From: Rhodospirillaceae bacterium
GTDB lineage: Bacteria; Pseudomonadota; Alphaproteobacteria; CADEGL01
Length of the DNA stretch: 37,039 nt
Direction of reading: 5' to 3'
Assembly (NCBI GenBank): GCA_018699755.1
Contig: JABIRQ010000113.1
Span: 1-37,039, forward strand
The notes beneath the pieces were generated by a model. It was not told the origin of the DNA. It searched no databases and was given only the letters and a program-made list of their open reading frames with translations. This document shows positions 1 to 6,388 of the stretch, in pieces; position 1 is the stretch's first letter, and each line of letters opens with the position of its first letter. The translations under genes and the position numbers were made by a program.

Positions 1-933
<933 letters not shown>

Positions 934-1281
934 GAGCTGAGAATTTCCTACGGAATTTAACAAACCAACACAGAACAGCTCGGCTATCTTCCCATATGTG
1001 GAGGCCTTAGAAAATTTGGGATGTGCCGTGCCGCAAACGCCCTATTGGATTGAGGTTGGACCATGTAGCTGATTTTGCCGAAAAGTTGAACCTTGCGCGC
1101 AAACAGCAGTTGAACAACCGAGTCCAAGATGTTCTGATTTAGCTGTCGGCGTTCGCAAGTTCTTGGAAATTTGATAAATACCGTTGATGGTTGAAAAGTT
1201 CACAGAATGGTAGTAGCCGTACAAAAGCATTAAGTTAGATAAATTCTTATGTGAAGTGAGAAAACATACACAAGATCACAC

Positions 1282-2535
1282 ATGGATAAAGAAACAAAAG
1301 GCGCTTGGATAATACATCACGGTCGGAAGATTGCGCTTCACATTGGCGCGGCATCAGACTATCCAGCCCTTGATGAATCCTCTAAAGCAGCCGAACTTTT
1401 GATGAGGTTAGGCCAGACTGATCAGTCAGTTCTGACGAAACCTCAAGCAGTAGCTGTGGCTAGAGCAGCAAATCTCAATCACCGTACCGAACTTCCCCAC
1501 TATTTGAATATATTGGAGAAACGAAAGCTAATTGATATTTCTGGCGAAAATATTGCAATTTTAGGTGTCACCACAAGAAGTGTCTTAGCTCACGCAAATG
1601 ATATTTTAGAAGATGGTGAGCCAAATGAATACGAGCAGGCTTCACTTGGTTTAGCAGAGTTAACATCCTCTGAGCTGCAAGAAAAGAAAAAATCTCTCGA
1701 ATATATTAGCGATACTTATCATATAAGCAACCCAGATGTTAAAGATTTTGTAAATCAATCTATTGAGCTTGGATTTGTAGATTTTGAAGGTGATGGGGAA
1801 GACGGTTTATTATTCAATGGAAACTTATTTAAACGAAAGACTATTGTAAAAACGGGGAAAGTTCTTTCGTCATTATCATCAGAAGAAGAGGAAAGGGTGG
1901 TTGAATTTTCCCAGACACTACAGAGGTTGGGGTGTGTCCATTCGCGAACTGCTGATCGTATCTTAGGAGAGACGTTGTTCGAAAAATTAAAAGCGGCTGG
2001 ATTTTTTGAAGTTAATATTGTGTCAAATGAACATGGAGAGCATGCATTTGTAAATTCTCCAGGGGCATTTCATAAGTTCGTAAATCCTTTTATTGATGAT
2101 AGTTTTGATATGGCAAAATCGTTAGTGGCCGCGCTCAAGTACGGGATGACTTTGCGTAATCCTGCACAGGGTCGGATAATTAGTGTCGATTGGATACTGG
2201 GTGCCTTGATCAAGGGGCGCACAATCGGACCTGCGACGGCGATTGGCAATGACTATAGAGTTCTAGAAAACAATAGAGTGGTGCAATTGTCTCATGCTGG
2301 CGGCGGTATGTTTTCGATGAGGTTGTTGAAGCGCGAGATTGGCGAGCTCGCACTTGAGGTCCTTACGACTGGCGATGCGAACGCAGAGGCGATCAATGCC
2401 CCGCCAGGTTCCCCGATGACTGGATATATCGGTCCAGAAGAGAGTCGAACATTGCTTCGTCGCCGACAAAAGCCGCAGAGTAAGCGCGCAACTCGCGATA
2501 TCCTGAGTTCGCTTAGGGGGGGAAGGTCGATCTAG
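1282..2535 (+). CDS. Hypothetical protein, 417 aa (islet gene A); possible multi-winged-helix DNA-binding or sensor protein
   Basis: Long ORF in low-GC DNA. Its TAG stop (2533-2535) overlaps the GTG start of gene B by 1 nt. I see no P-loop, HNH, TIR or SIR2 motif by eye. Recurrent helix + Gly-rich hairpin segments (LPHYLNILEKRKLIDISGENIAILG; FVNQSIELGFVDFEGDGEDGLLFNG; LFEKLKAAGFFEVNIVSNEHGEHAFV) hint at winged-helix modules. The C-terminal tail is basic (RRRQKPQSKRATR). The function call is inference only. Confidence 0.75.
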   Translation: MDKETKGAWIIHHGRKIALHIGAASDYPALDESSKAAELLMRLGQTDQSVLTKPQAVAVARAANLNHRTELPHYLNILEKRKLIDISGENIAILGVTTRSVLAHANDILEDGEPNEYEQASLGLAELTSSELQEKKKSLEYISDTYHISNPDVKDFVNQSIELGFVDFEGDGEDGLLFNGNLFKRKTIVKTGKVLSSLSSEEEERVVEFSQTLQRLGCVHSRTADRILGETLFEKLKAAGFFEVNIVSNEHGEHAFVNSPGAFHKFVNPFIDDSFDMAKSLVAALKYGMTLRNPAQGRIISVDWILGALIKGRTIGPATAIGNDYRVLENNRVVQLSHAGGGMFSMRLLKREIGELALEVLTTGDANAEAINAPPGSPMTGYIGPEESRTLLRRRQKPQSKRATRDILSSLRGGRSI

Positions 2536-3683
2536 TGGCCAAAAACGCTAAGGATACCAAAGGCCCAGCTCTCGAAGAGCTGCTTAGAGCATATTTTCTA
2601 AGGGGCGGGTTTTTCGCTGTGCGGGCAGTTCCTTTTCAGCATTTTGGCGAGGATTTAACCGACGTCGATATTTGGCTCTATGAAAGACCGACGGGTTCAT
2701 CCCGGCGGAGGCTGATTGTCGACGCAAAATCGAAGACCAAACCGAAGGCGATTGAGCGGCTCTTTTGGACAAAAGGGCTTGCTGAGCTGTTGGACGTAGA
2801 TGGCGCCTACATTGCCACAACCGATGCTAGGCCATTGTTGCGAGAATTCGGAAGAAAGCTCGGTCTCCTCGTTCTCGATGGCGCGGATTTGAAGCGGATT
2901 CAGAGAAGTGAAAAAATAATATTTCCAGAGAGATTATCGGAGGAGCAGTTTATTGATAAGATAAAATCTATTGATAAAATCAGAAGAAATAAAAATATAG
3001 AAGCTGTATTTCATGACATTAAAGCATCATTGTTAGATCAGTTCGGTCCGGCAACCGTCAATCGATCGCTAGAATATTTCTCTTTTTGTGCGGAGCAACT
3101 TACTCTGGTTCATCTAAATTCAAATTCAGCAGAAGTATTTGTTAGATTGAGCTATTTATCTGCGGCGATTGTTGCGCTATCGCTTGATTTTATTGGTTCG
3201 GAAATTTCCTTTCGAACAGCAGATGAGCGACGGTCTGCGTTTGAGAATGTAATCCGTTTTGGAAATTTGGATGAAGACTCTGGGTTGGCGCAGGTGCGAT
3301 TGGCGACGGCTCTAATAGAAAAATATGTTCCTAATGGAGAGGCGATTTCAAGTTCTGTAACAGTGGGCTTGAAAAAGGATTTATCTATTATACCTGCGGA
3401 TATTATTGGAGAATATATAGTAAATCATATGAAATTAGATGATTTGTTTAAAATGGCGAAAAAAATGGAATTTAGCAGTTACCTAAGAGAAATTCGATCA
3501 TTTGATGAGCTTGATATTGATGCTCGTTCATTCTTAGCAGTATTGCTAGATTTCTCTCGTGTTGATCGAATGAAATTCGCAAAGTCTTGGACTGGTGTTA
3601 GTGCTGAACGTGATTATGATAAAAGCAATCACACGGACCTAAATGATGGTCCATTATTTCAAGAAAAAAGAGAAAAAAAATGA
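2535..3683 (+). CDS. Predicted PD-(D/E)xK (Hjc/Mrr-like) nuclease with a C-terminal helical domain of unknown function, 382 aa (islet gene B)
   Basis: GTG start is preceded by the purine-rich run AGGGGGGGGAAGG (2514-2526). The N-terminus reads GPALEELLRAYFLRGGFFAVRAVPF...LTDVDIWLYERP...RRLIVDAKSK. This fits helix-E (E14/E15), D43-x-D45 (nt 2661-2669) and D63-A-K65 (nt 2721-2729), which is the order and spacing of Hjc/Mrr-type nuclease cores. Residues ~120-382 look all-helical and carry no motif I recognise. Confidence 0.72.
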   Translation: MAKNAKDTKGPALEELLRAYFLRGGFFAVRAVPFQHFGEDLTDVDIWLYERPTGSSRRRLIVDAKSKTKPKAIERLFWTKGLAELLDVDGAYIATTDARPLLREFGRKLGLLVLDGADLKRIQRSEKIIFPERLSEEQFIDKIKSIDKIRRNKNIEAVFHDIKASLLDQFGPATVNRSLEYFSFCAEQLTLVHLNSNSAEVFVRLSYLSAAIVALSLDFIGSEISFRTADERRSAFENVIRFGNLDEDSGLAQVRLATALIEKYVPNGEAISSSVTVGLKKDLSIIPADIIGEYIVNHMKLDDLFKMAKKMEFSSYLREIRSFDELDIDARSFLAVLLDFSRVDRMKFAKSWTGVSAERDYDKSNHTDLNDGPLFQEKREKK

Positions 3684-3799
3684 AATCGGAAATTATGTTT
3701 ATTTCGATTAAATTGATATTCTTGGTAACAACGACATATTGCCGACGCTGAGAGCTTTTTATTTGAGAACTTCTAGTTTTGTGTGAGGGGATACACTAC

Positions 3800-5074
3800 A
3801 TGACCACCGCCGACCACGCCGCTCTGCGGCAACAAATCCTCGACTGGATCGAAGCCGATCGCGAGGCGCTGATCGCGTTCTTCTCGGGCTTCGTCGCGGC
3901 GGCCTCGCCCAATCCGCCGGGGGATACCACGGTGGCGGTGAAGCATTTGACGGATTTCCTCGACGGCGAGGGGTTGCCCTACCGGATCGTCGATCCGGAG
4001 CCGACCATGGCGAATATCGTCGGCTCGTTCGACGGCGGGGCGGGGCCGGGGCGGCATCTGGTGCTGAACGGGCATATCGACTGCTTCCCGGTCGATCCGG
4101 ACGACGACCGCTGGACCCAGCCGCCCTGGAGCGGCGCCATCGCCGACGGCAAGGTCTGGGGCCGGGGCGCCGCCGATATGAAATGCGGCACCACGGCCGG
4201 GGTCATGACCTATCGCTATCTCCACCGCCTGAAGGACCATCTGAAGGGCAAGCTGACCCTGACCTGCGTCTCGGACGAGGAGACCTTCGGGCCCTGGGGC
4301 GCGCGCTGGCTGATCGAGAACGAGCCCGAGGTGCTGGGCGATGTCTGCCTGAACGGCGAGCCATCGAGCCCCTACACCATCCGCTTCGGCGAGAAGGGGC
4401 CGCTCTGGCTGCTCATCGAGGTCCGGACGCGCGGCGCGCACGGCGCCTATCCCCACCAGACCGACAGCGCCAGCAAGATCGCCGCCGTCCTCGTGGGCGA
4501 GCTGGAGAAGGTGACGGAGATCGAGGCCAACATGCCCGACAACGTCTTCCGCGCCCTGGGCCAGGCCCATGAGGCGATGGACAAGGCAATGGAGCCCGGC
4601 GCGGCGGAGATCGTGCCCAAGGTCACCCTGAACATCGGCATCGTCCAGGGCGGGCTGAAGGTCAACATGGTGCCCGATCATGTGCGGATGGAGGCCGATA
4701 TCCGCGTGCCCGTGGGCATCGAGAAGGAACAGGTGCTGGCCGTCGTCGACGAGATCATGGCCCGCTATCCCCAGGCCAGCTACGAGGAGATGAACTACAC
4801 CCCGCCGAGCTGGTGCGAGCCCTATCACGAGATGGTCGAGATCCTGCAGAAGAACGCCAAGGAGAGCGGCGGCTACGACCCCGTGCCGATCGTCGGCCTG
4901 GGCGGCACCGACGCGCGCCTGTGGCGGCACAAGAACATCCCGGCCTATGTCTACGGCCCGCCGCCCACGGGCATGGGCACGGCGAACGAGCATGTCGAGA
5001 TCGAGACCTTCCTGCACATCGTCCGCACCCATGCCCTGAGCGCGCTGGACTACATGGTCAAGGCGGCGGAGTAG
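3800..5074 (+). CDS. M20 family metallopeptidase (ArgE/DapE/ACY1/CPG2-like)
   Basis: Motifs LVLNGHIDCFPV, WGRGAADMKCG and SDEETFG are present. ATG 3800 lies 9 nt after GAGGGG and is preferred over the TTG at 3779 used in the ORF track. Confidence 0.9.
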   Translation: MTTADHAALRQQILDWIEADREALIAFFSGFVAAASPNPPGDTTVAVKHLTDFLDGEGLPYRIVDPEPTMANIVGSFDGGAGPGRHLVLNGHIDCFPVDPDDDRWTQPPWSGAIADGKVWGRGAADMKCGTTAGVMTYRYLHRLKDHLKGKLTLTCVSDEETFGPWGARWLIENEPEVLGDVCLNGEPSSPYTIRFGEKGPLWLLIEVRTRGAHGAYPHQTDSASKIAAVLVGELEKVTEIEANMPDNVFRALGQAHEAMDKAMEPGAAEIVPKVTLNIGIVQGGLKVNMVPDHVRMEADIRVPVGIEKEQVLAVVDEIMARYPQASYEEMNYTPPSWCEPYHEMVEILQKNAKESGGYDPVPIVGLGGTDARLWRHKNIPAYVYGPPPTGMGTANEHVEIETFLHIVRTHALSALDYMVKAAE

Positions 5075-5100
5075 GGGGGTGGGCACGGTTGCGGCTCCCC

Positions 5101-5490
5101 GGCGTCACCCTTCGAGACGCGGCCTTGCGGCCGCTCCTCAGGGTGAGGACGTGCGGGTCGGCGCGCATCTGCCCTTCGCATCCCGGCGTCACCCTTCGAG
5201 ACACGGCCTTGCGGCCGCTCCTCAGGGTGAGGATGTGCGGGTCGGCGCGCATGTGCCCTTCGCATCCCGGCGTCACCCTTCGAGACGCGGCCTTGCGGCC
5301 GCTCCTCAGGGTGAGGCTGTGCGGGTCGGCGCGCATCTGCCCTTCGCATCCCGGCGTCACCCTTCGAGACGCGGCCTCGCAGCCGCTCCTCAGGGTGAGG
5401 TTGTGCGGGTCGGCGCGCATCTGCCCTTCGCATCCTGGCGTCACCCTTCGAGACGCGGCCTCGCAGCCGCTCCTCAGGGTGAGGATGTGC
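5101..5490 (+). repeat. Tandem array: 84-bp unit x ~4.6 copies, ~95% identical; each unit contains a REP-like hairpin core
   Basis: Units begin with GGCGTCACCC at 5101, 5185, 5269, 5353 and 5437. The core is TCACCCTtcgagacGCGGCCttgcGGCCGCtcctcAGGGTGA, an imperfect hairpin. Confidence 0.95.
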
Positions 5491-5516
5491 TGATTTTCGA
5501 GTTCCTTCCTTCGTGT

Positions 5517-5558
5517 CCTCATCCTGAGGAGGCCGCGCAGCGGCCGTCTCGAAGGGTG
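5517..5558 (-). repeat. Inverted copy of the REP-like core, closing the array
   Basis: CCTCATCCTGAGGAGGCCGCGCAGCGGCCGTCTCGAAGGGTG is the reverse complement of the core CACCCTTCGAGACG...CTCCTCAGGATGAGG. Confidence 0.9.
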
Positions 5559-5590
5559 GGGGCACGTCGCACCGTGTTTGGAGCCGCTCC

Positions 5591-6388
5591 ATGACCATGC
5601 CGCGCGCCTATTGGGCGGAGATGACGACCGAGGAGGTCGCGGGGCTGGAAGGCGCCGGGCTGGTGGCGATCCTGCCCCTGGCGGCGATCGAGCAGCACGG
5701 GCCGCATCTGCCGCTCTCGACCGATGCCGATATCTGCGCCGGGATTCTCGCCGCCGCGATGGCGCGCCGGTCGCCGGGCCTGCCGGCGACGGCCCTGCCG
5801 CCGATCCTGGTGACCAAGAGCGACGAGCATGCCGGCTTTCCCGGCACCTTGAGCCTGACGGCGGAGACCCTGGTCGATGCGATCTGCCAGACGGCGGCGG
5901 GTCTGGCTCGGCTCGGGCTGCGCAAGCTGGTCCTGCTCAACGGCCATGGCGGCAACCGCGACATCATGGGCCTGGCTGCCGGGCGGCTGCGGGCCGAGCA
6001 CGGCATGCTGGTCGCCAAGGCCAACACGTCTGATCTCTACGACGCGGGTACCGCCGTGGGCGGGGAGGAGGCCAGGCTGGGCATCCATGGCGGCGCGGTC
6101 GAGACCGCCCTGATGCTGCATCTCAAGCCGGACCTGGTGCGCAAGGACAGGATCGCGCGGTTCGAGTCCCTGACCGCCGCGATGCGGGAAGAGGGCTACG
6201 AGAAGCTCTCGCCCCAGGGGCCGCACGGCTTCTACTGGCATGCCGGGGACCTGAACCCCGCCGGGGTCGTGGGCGACGCGACGAAAGCCACGGCGGCCCT
6301 GGGCAAGGCCCTGACCGGGCAGGCCGCCGACTCGCTGATCGCCCTGCTGGAAGAGGTCCACCGCTTCGATGTCTCGCGCCTGGTTTAA
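5591..6388 (+). CDS. Creatininase (creatinine amidohydrolase) family protein
   Basis: Family signatures AAIEQHGPHLPLSTD, SDEHAGFPGT, NGHGGN and IHGGAVETA are present. GGAG lies 7 nt upstream of the ATG. Confidence 0.88.
   Translation: MTMPRAYWAEMTTEEVAGLEGAGLVAILPLAAIEQHGPHLPLSTDADICAGILAAAMARRSPGLPATALPPILVTKSDEHAGFPGTLSLTAETLVDAICQTAAGLARLGLRKLVLLNGHGGNRDIMGLAAGRLRAEHGMLVAKANTSDLYDAGTAVGGEEARLGIHGGAVETALMLHLKPDLVRKDRIARFESLTAAMREEGYEKLSPQGPHGFYWHAGDLNPAGVVGDATKATAALGKALTGQAADSLIALLEEVHRFDVSRLV

Follow-up and report, generated by a model that had tools for sequence, protein, structure and literature searches.

In a 37,039-nt stretch of Rhodospirillaceae DNA (contig JABIRQ010000113.1; the whole stretch is referred to below as the window) we analysed a low-GC islet that lies between recQ and an M20 peptidase gene and carries two genes, here called A and B. 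Judged by its sequence and by association, the islet appears to be acquired cargo with an unnamed two-component nuclease system that is free of nucleoside triphosphatases (NTPases) and whose role is most likely anti-phage or anti-invader, a reading to which we give slightly better than even chances. An initial annotation of the window had described a compact accessory cargo that pairs a sensor with a nuclease in a defence-like layout, and the computational tests run here support that reading.

To define the islet, we compared its composition and its flanks with those of a relative that lacks it. When measured in 200-nt windows, the guanine-plus-cytosine (GC) content is 0.69-0.71 up to ~900, 0.33-0.57 over ~900-3800 and 0.66-0.72 beyond. 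This is the sole dip in the sequence, as all other 1-kb bins of the 37-kb window have a GC of at least 0.62 (islet 0.41-0.48, host 0.68-0.70). The relative, metagenome contig Ga0114999_10004998 (L029), was found by a metagenome scan with the M20 protein, and its M20 and RecQ proteins are each 94% identical to those of the window. Window positions 1-912 align with L029 1634-2545 at 91% nucleotide identity and positions 3800-5166 align with L029 2834-4202 at 93%, while between 912 and 3800 the window has no alignment to L029: the place taken up in the window by low-GC DNA of 2,887 bp (913-3799, no strand) is filled in L029 by a GC-rich recQ-M20 spacer of 288 bp. L029 is the empty site, of the kind that the initial annotation had suggested looking for in close relatives, and the window is the filled site. 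Since the edges in composition coincide with the breaks in homology to L029, these edges are real recombination breakpoints, and the sharp GC fall at ~912 and rise at ~3785 that had been read from the letters agree with the breakpoints at 912/3800. By its sequence, the islet is evidently foreign DNA that was horizontally acquired. The earlier description of an insertion in the recQ/M20 intergenic region was right about the location but not about the event: L029 has a native 288-bp spacer that is absent from the window, so the acquired DNA replaced it, and the islet is a replacement rather than a clean insertion, with the native spacer and the first ~6 recQ codons lost. The hallmarks of an integrase-mediated genomic island are missing, as had been noted from the letters: scans found no integrase or transposase open reading frame (ORF) in 913-3799, no tRNA in the window and no direct repeats flanking the islet, and the spacer was replaced rather than duplicated. 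In view of the missing repeats and recombinase, acquisition probably occurred by illegitimate or flank-homology recombination. GC is also uneven inside the islet, at 0.49-0.57 over window 2200-2900 (the 3' end of A together with the first third of B) and 0.32-0.44 elsewhere; this segment holds the most conserved parts of A and B and is the only islet DNA that still aligns to other loci.

The two genes form a tight unit. A (417 aa, ATG start) occupies 1282-2535 and B (382 aa, GTG start) 2535-3683, both on the + strand, and apart from them the islet holds no further + strand ORF of at least 60 aa. They share one base in TAGTG, which serves as the A stop and the B start, and a purine-rich Shine-Dalgarno-like run for B, GGGGGGGAAGG (2515-2525, + strand), is encoded by the conserved LRGGR end of A and located 10-20 nt 5' of B's GTG. 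These features, including the 1-nt overlap and the purine-rich run inside A, had all been pointed out by the initial annotation and were found here as described. The same arrangement recurs elsewhere: A lies directly 5' of B in 30 of the 30 loci examined, pairs less than 30% identical included, so that the linkage of homologs in other genomes, proposed earlier as a check, is seen in every case. Among the first-collected loci, A was immediately upstream of B in 26/26 (tblastn); these came from Xanthomonas, Ralstonia, Rhodobacter, P. aeruginosa, other Pseudomonas, Caballeronia, Nitratireductor and Pararhizobium as well as from metagenome-assembled genomes (MAGs) of Rhodobacteraceae, Cardiobacteriaceae, Burkholderiales, Steroidobacteraceae and Binataceae. 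Plasmids of V. parahaemolyticus (identity to the window 41% for A and 32% for B) and Mesorhizobium amorphae pM0123a (51% for A, 40% for B) keep this order too. The two most distant full-length A homologs that we looked up have a 4-nt overlap with the next gene, of 469 or 487 aa, and hhalign aligns these neighbours to the B profile with probabilities of 97.8 and 96.9; they retain TDID...D-C-K, the counterparts of D45 and of D63-A64-K65 in B. In 24 loci the junctions are overlaps (TAATG, TGATG, ATGA, TAGTG) or 2-6-nt spacers, and a purine run from the conserved LRGGR end of A precedes every one of them. Finally, pairwise identities of A and of B over 22 loci are correlated with r = 0.987, A being the more conserved (mean identity 55% versus 47% for B). 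Altogether, the genomic comparisons show that A and B are obligate partners, translationally coupled and passed on together.

The family is rare and widely scattered. An exhaustive profile search with A, covering 1.84 billion representatives, gave 593 clusters (50% identity), and a pattern scan found 18 loci in 185,579 species genomes; the range covers alpha-, beta- and gammaproteobacteria and at least one Binataceae genome. Among the 150 best listed A-family representatives the full-length members have 411-437 aa, with no case of fusion to a further domain. Both A and B have many full-length homologs at 50-71% identity. Homolog matches were more numerous for A than for B (822 versus 233), and we therefore considered that A might pair with other effectors; this was rejected, as the most distant A homologs also precede B-family proteins. 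A conserved third gene was rejected too, since the small ORFs seen upstream of A are lineage-specific: ICE copies of P. aeruginosa (integrative and conjugative element, ICE) have a 107-aa HTH_3 (XRE-type) gene that overlaps the A start (L005 8416-8739), and a Burkholderiales MAG has a 150-aa ORF without a Pfam match in that position (L023 8287-8739), both absent from the window. Inactivated copies of A occur in Xanthomonas campestris (an in-frame stop at about codon 198; L001 8741-9994), in an alphaproteobacterial MAG (a DDE_Tnp_1 transposase inserted in A; L009 8832-9617) and in a Cardiobacteriaceae MAG (an IS3-like sequence replacing the 5' half of A; L014 8586-9200). The chromosome of the Cardiobacteriaceae MAG, OZ255837.1, has two copies of the pair (L013 and L014) ~220 kb apart; these have a common downstream flank with ORFs of 508, 318, 396, 290 and about 540 aa, so that the pair moves there within a larger repeated element.

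To characterize B, we combined alignment of its homologs with an AlphaFold model (predicted local distance difference test, pLDDT, 85.4; predicted template modelling score, pTM, 0.84). The model divides the protein into an N-terminal nuclease domain (aa 1-130; 2535-2924), which is basic (isoelectric point, pI, 9.7), an all-helical domain (aa 131-352; 2925-3590) predicted with pLDDT 90-98, and a disordered tail (aa 353-382; 3591-3683) with pLDDT below 50, all on the + strand. The core of the first domain has the predicted order alpha-beta-beta-beta-alpha-beta (H11-23, E27-36, E39-53, E56-65, H70-86, E90-94). This is the order of the PD-(D/E)xK nuclease core, in which the catalytic residues sit on helix 1, strand 2 and strand 3. 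Alignment A1 gave E14, E15, D45, E50 and D63-A-K65 as invariant, and in the model E14/E15 map to the first helix, H11-23 (codons 2574-2579), D45 to the second strand, E39-53, as the 'D' of PD (codon 2667-2669), and D63/K65 to the third strand, E56-65, as the (D/E)xK (codons of D63-A64-K65, 2721-2729; all + strand). Thus the nuclease-type catalytic signature that had been noticed in B by eye is borne out, as D63-x-K65 is invariant and maps to strand 3 of the modelled core, and we predict that the N-terminal domain is a PD-(D/E)xK nuclease of the restriction-endonuclease-like type. Mrr_cat is the only Pfam family that recurs in the B family (15/49 members, best E = 0.014, all sub-threshold); the window protein itself has no Mrr_cat match at E <= 1 and no Mrr_N match. 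Foldseek searches of the PDB gave weak restriction-fold matches to BamHI (probability 0.75), VC1899 and Can2, none with E <0.3. For the helical domain matches were limited to designed bundles and TetR-like proteins, and these searches gave it no structural or sequence counterpart. In the tail, a GPLF motif (aa 373-376; GSLF or QLF in other members) is found in most homologs, though several of the shorter proteins lack it; a role as docking peptide is conceivable.

A is, as modelled, a tandem winged-helix protein with four winged-helix units and a basic C-terminal helical tail (AlphaFold; pLDDT 78.5, pTM 0.52). Each unit is predicted to run helix-strand-helix-helix-strand-strand, four in a row; in unit 1 (aa 28-93; 1363-1560) DSSP assigns H28-45, E50-52, H53-62, H70-80, E84-87 and E90-93. 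Unit 2 (aa 116-178; 1627-1815) and unit 3 (aa 200-258; 1879-2055) are acidic, with net charges of -11 and -5, and unit 4 (aa 269-348; 2086-2325) is basic (pI 10). The tail helices (aa 385-412; 2434-2517, like the units on the + strand), placed by alignment A2 and DSSP, contain the residues P385, E386, R389, R393, Q396, D406 and R412, which are invariant in that alignment. The best Foldseek matches of A are all multi-winged-helix proteins: RPC62, RPC34 (probability 0.99), UFL1, STK19, the SelB C-terminus, ScpB, Nse1/3 and MAGE. With E from 1e-3 to 0.3 (best 1.6e-3), sequence identities of 6-16% and TM-scores of 0.1-0.25, the predicted likeness to these scaffolds is one of architecture and not of demonstrable homology. 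Against the viral library BFVD, Foldseek returned TrmB-, Z-binding- and cullin-type winged helices. Pfam and per-member scans gave no NTPase, methylase, HNH, TIR or SIR2 signal in A, in agreement with the first inspection of its sequence. An Abi_alpha match (E = 0.054, one of 54 members) and sub-threshold RRM_3 matches (11 of 54 members) were judged to be chance. We propose A as the sensor or regulatory subunit of the pair.

We next consider the places in which the pair is found. In Caballeronia DA-9 a P2-like prophage carries it, flanked by the replication gene gpA and the portal gene gpQ, beside an AAA_15/AAA_21 pair; the cos-proximal gpA-gpQ region of P2 is a hotspot shown by Rousset et al. 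to hold anti-phage systems (PMC9122126). In P. aeruginosa it is cargo of an ICE with ParA, RPA, DUF2958, DUF736 and ParB_N, where an insertion sequence adjoins the pair and OLD-TOPRIM + UvrD genes, also paired, are found at a distance of a few kb. Ralstonia 25C has the pair directly after CTD12/MC8/DUF2326, in an island with AAA_21, HNH_5 and H-NS genes, and Rhodobacter capsulatus has it between an OLD-like gene with SRAP + IS66 and an integrase with prophage genes. On the Mesorhizobium plasmid it stands beside an Eco57I-like restriction-modification (R-M) system, in Pseudomonas fragariae (L018) it adjoins a DRT UG5-nitrilase, and in a Burkholderiales MAG (L023) a type I restriction endonuclease. 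The neighbours of the pair include DRT, type I R-M, Gabija-like, OLD-like and ABC-3C genes, and the GC of the pair is no higher than that of its flanks in 15/15 other loci examined. Taken together, these contexts show that the pair moves from one genome to another, unrelated one, carried by prophages, ICEs, plasmids and small islets.

The neighbours were then scored against PADLOC profiles. The 148 ORFs within 5.5 kb of the pair in 15 further loci matched 233 PADLOC families, with E down to 0, 4e-230 and 6e-227; among them were matches of full-length strength (E 0 to 1e-80) to DRT, type I M and S subunits, GajB, PD-T4-3, a type II methyltransferase and LeoA/LeoBC. For comparison, 145 control ORFs, called in like manner near the housekeeping gene M20 of 15 metagenome loci, matched 51 families, with a best E of 2.7e-35, and these were generic ATPase or helicase cross-matches throughout. 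The company of defence or mobile genes that the initial annotation had put forward as a check is therefore seen far more around the pair than around M20, in what is a qualitative comparison and not a formal enrichment statistic.

Besides the qualitative nature of this control, several observations weigh against a defence role of the kind proposed. About half of the pair loci, the window included, are small islets in housekeeping surroundings where known defence genes are lacking, and the phage collection searched contains no homolog of B, the family being absent from it. On the side of the proteins, the Mrr_cat similarity of B never reaches the Pfam threshold and no PDB structure matches B at E <0.3, while a complex of A with B is proposed from the coupling of their genes. 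Moreover, units 2 and 3 of A are acidic and are unlikely to bind nucleic acid, and sensing of nucleic acid is hence just one option for A.

With these points in mind, the mechanism that we find most likely, and favour by a modest tilt, is that A and B form a complex in which the Mrr-like domain of B cuts DNA and A targets or restrains B. The DNA-cutting effector would be the N-terminal PD-(D/E)xK domain with E14/E15, D45 and D63-x-K65, and the helical domain of B would be a docking or regulatory module. A, with its four winged-helix units and basic tail, would be the subunit that senses or licenses. Its cue would be a feature of foreign nucleic acid or else a phage protein, and on recognising it A would guide the nuclease or set it free. 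Both proteins lack NTPase motifs, so the process would involve no hydrolysis of ATP or GTP. The outcome could be either cutting of the invader only, as in restriction, or cutting of the host as well, as in abortive infection. The charge pattern further suggests, speculatively, that the acidic middle units of A mask the basic DNA-binding face of B and that the basic unit 4 and tail contact nucleic acid. In its boldest form, this would make the pair a new class of NTPase- and methyltransferase-free immune nuclease, in which an A that resembles a fused KITE dimer restrains the Mrr-like B via its acidic middle domains and releases or aims it once the basic winged helix and the tail of A encounter a particular nucleic-acid structure or protein from a phage; we offer this version as a tentative and rather doubtful possibility.

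A first alternative is that the pair is a split modification-dependent type IV enzyme, with A as the reader and B as an Mrr-like nuclease that cuts DNA with foreign modification. This would be a special case of the defence reading. In E. coli Mrr, a winged-helix DNA reader and an Mrr_cat nuclease are joined in one chain. By domain, Mrr_cat (PF04471) is the family nearest to B, and the likeness to Mrr/type IV enzymes covers several points: Mrr_cat is the only recurring Pfam signal in B, the B layout with an acidic residue in helix 1, a D in strand 2 and DxK in strand 3 is common to both, one homolog bears the UniRef name 'Restriction endonuclease type IV Mrr domain', A is made of winged helices, the partner modules of Mrr, and the conserved pair has no methyltransferase, as expected of such an enzyme. 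However, Mrr_cat is sub-threshold in every member, none reaching the Pfam gathering score, and Mrr_N is not matched at all; the winged helices are on a separate 417-aa protein and in four copies, two of them strongly acidic, and B itself has no winged helix; and the 220-residue helical domain of B is foreign to Mrr. Nothing in the sequence bears on modification dependence, and we consider this explanation unlikely.

The gene order could also be read as that of a module of the toxin-antitoxin or addiction type, with a stabilising effect on mobile elements, B being a toxic nuclease and A a DNA-binding antitoxin and autorepressor, with any effect on phage secondary (abortive infection on loss of A). 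The putative antitoxin gene comes first, the two genes are tightly coupled, A has winged helices, and location on plasmids, an ICE and prophages fits type II logic. On the other hand, both proteins are about four times larger than classical toxin-antitoxin partners, A is more conserved than B (55% versus 47%), and no operator-like DNA is conserved upstream of A across loci (the window leader has one 17-nt inverted repeat). At least three genomes have A inactivated and the B ORF intact, which would be lethal if A must neutralise B, although this argument is weakened because lost translation of A should lower the coupled translation of B. An addiction module is, in our judgement, quite improbable. 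Finally, a role outside defence, as a recQ-linked repair or recombination accessory or in the service of a mobile element (replication, exclusion or anti-defence), would fit the recQ gene beside the pair in the window and the tandem winged helices of replication initiators and SMC-associated KITE proteins (ScpB, Nse1/3), but is very improbable: recQ adjacency is unique to the window, with different neighbours in 20 other distinct contexts, and L029 has recQ without the pair, which together make a recQ-linked repair role unlikely, while no SMC, kleisin or replication gene is conserved beside the pair, the leader holds no iterons, the distribution is patchy and rare (the 18 loci and 593 clusters given above) and the composition is consistently foreign.

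The arrival of the islet has also altered its left flank. The 5' part of recQ, a host gene, runs on the - strand over 1-933 (Pfam DEAD, Helicase_C, RecQ_Zn_bind, RQC and HRDC), and the islet supplies its first ~6 codons (about 916-933). By tblastn, RecQ is 94% identical to that of L029 from residue 6 onward, and its N-terminus reads LEIRTNQSLPP in the window versus MMSDNTSLPP in L029; the window start is TTG at 931-933 in the call of the Joint Genome Institute (JGI). Acquired low-GC DNA (913-933, - strand) thus stands in place of the original recQ start codon, of its first ~6 codons and of its promoter region. Since the native promoter region is gone, recQ expression now must depend on signals in the 369-bp leader of the islet (913-1281, no strand). 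This leader is non-coding, its + strand ORFs all being 39 aa or shorter, and should carry the promoters of both A-B (+) and recQ (-). A promoter scan found no sigma-70 consensus in it and did no better than on shuffles. At its left edge is a 17-nt inverted repeat (922-938/1158-1174), 88% complementary, with arms 219 nt apart; neither the repeat nor the rest of the leader has a copy elsewhere in the window or in any fetched locus. Across loci there is no conserved upstream DNA or RNA element, and Rfam gave no match in window 700-6000.

On the right, AT-rich non-coding DNA (3684-3799, no strand) runs up to the start codon of M20, and a scan for a terminator there gave nothing convincing and again did no better than on shuffles. 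The M20 peptidase (3800-5074, + strand; Pfam Peptidase_M20 + M20_dimer) is a host gene with 93% nucleotide identity to L029. Directly after its stop codon (5074), an 84-bp unit is repeated in tandem (4.7 copies, 96% identity; 5098-5490); it is single-copy in L029 (4134-4202) and has no Rfam match. The whole arrangement is on record elsewhere, as the exact B protein is found on a 176-kb JGI metagenome contig with the order recQ (-), 417-aa gene, 382-aa gene, M20 (+).

Taken as a whole, the module is real, cleanly bounded and horizontally acquired, and the pair is a well-supported candidate for a new nuclease-based defence family, one more among many already predicted. If confirmed, it would be a compact one, with ~2.4 kb of coding DNA, whose members current annotation pipelines label 'hypothetical protein'. 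For a nuclease-based system, the lack of an ATPase, a helicase and a methylase is unusual, and for this reason the way in which the pair discriminates self from non-self would be informative. If the reading in which a fused-KITE-like A restrains and releases B were true, it would represent a sensing principle so far undescribed in bacterial defence. The natural material favours experiments, as it includes a filled and an empty site, P2-hotspot, plasmid and ICE copies and A-null alleles; both proteins are small, and the predicted catalytic residues offer themselves for mutation.

In comparison with known systems, neither A nor B has a match above threshold in Pfam, NCBIfam, PHROGs or PADLOC-DB v2.0.0, and PDB sequences gave no match in single-sequence or profile searches. 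The initial annotation had judged the pair to be unlike any named two-gene system; consistent with this, PADLOC-DB v2.0.0, which covers named and candidate systems, gave 0 families at E <= 1 for A and B, and a literature search by accession or keyword found no description of the pair, although a very recent naming may have escaped these searches. Gabija GajA/GajB, PARIS AriA/AriB, Septu PtuA/PtuB, Hachiman HamA/HamB and Lamassu LmuA/LmuB are likewise compact operons of a sensor or regulator and a nuclease, and nuclease-plus-NTPase pairs occupy the same kinds of hotspot as A-B, several directly adjoining it. These five systems have an ATPase or helicase partner, whereas A has no NTPase motif or Pfam match, and their PADLOC models do not match A or B even at E <= 1. 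As regards Lamassu and Wadjet, which have an SMC-type ATPase (with a kleisin in Wadjet), the two-gene islet holds no such gene and no ATPase match, and none is conserved beside the pair elsewhere. Classical R-M differs by its cognate methyltransferase, which is absent from the conserved A-B unit; methyltransferases appear only in separate neighbouring R-M systems at a few loci. The tandem winged-helix scaffolds (RPC62/RPC34, UFL1, STK19, the SelB C-terminus and the KITE proteins ScpB and Nse1/3/MAGE) are, like A, strings of two to four winged helices, but A is not accompanied by SMC or kleisin genes.

GAPS4 looked promising as an identity for the pair, being a two-gene system with a PD-(D/E)xK subunit from Vibrio. 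This was rejected: in a comparison that covers GAPS4a, the hhalign probability was 0.06 against A and against B, and six accessions of pair members are absent from the supplements of the GAPS4 paper (bioRxiv 10.1101/2025.09.07.674715). In GAPS4 the nuclease gene comes first, its motif is HGxD-SxK and fused single-gene forms exist (bioRxiv 10.1101/2025.09.07.674715), whereas in A-B the nuclease is second, the motif is D...DxK and no fusion occurs among the 150 best representatives. By mechanism, GAPS4 nevertheless appears to be the closest known working analogy to the pair: GAPS4a/GAPS4b is a two-gene, NTPase-free defence system with an N-terminal PD-(D/E)xK subunit, in which both genes are required and the products form a complex (bioRxiv 10.1101/2025.09.07.674715).

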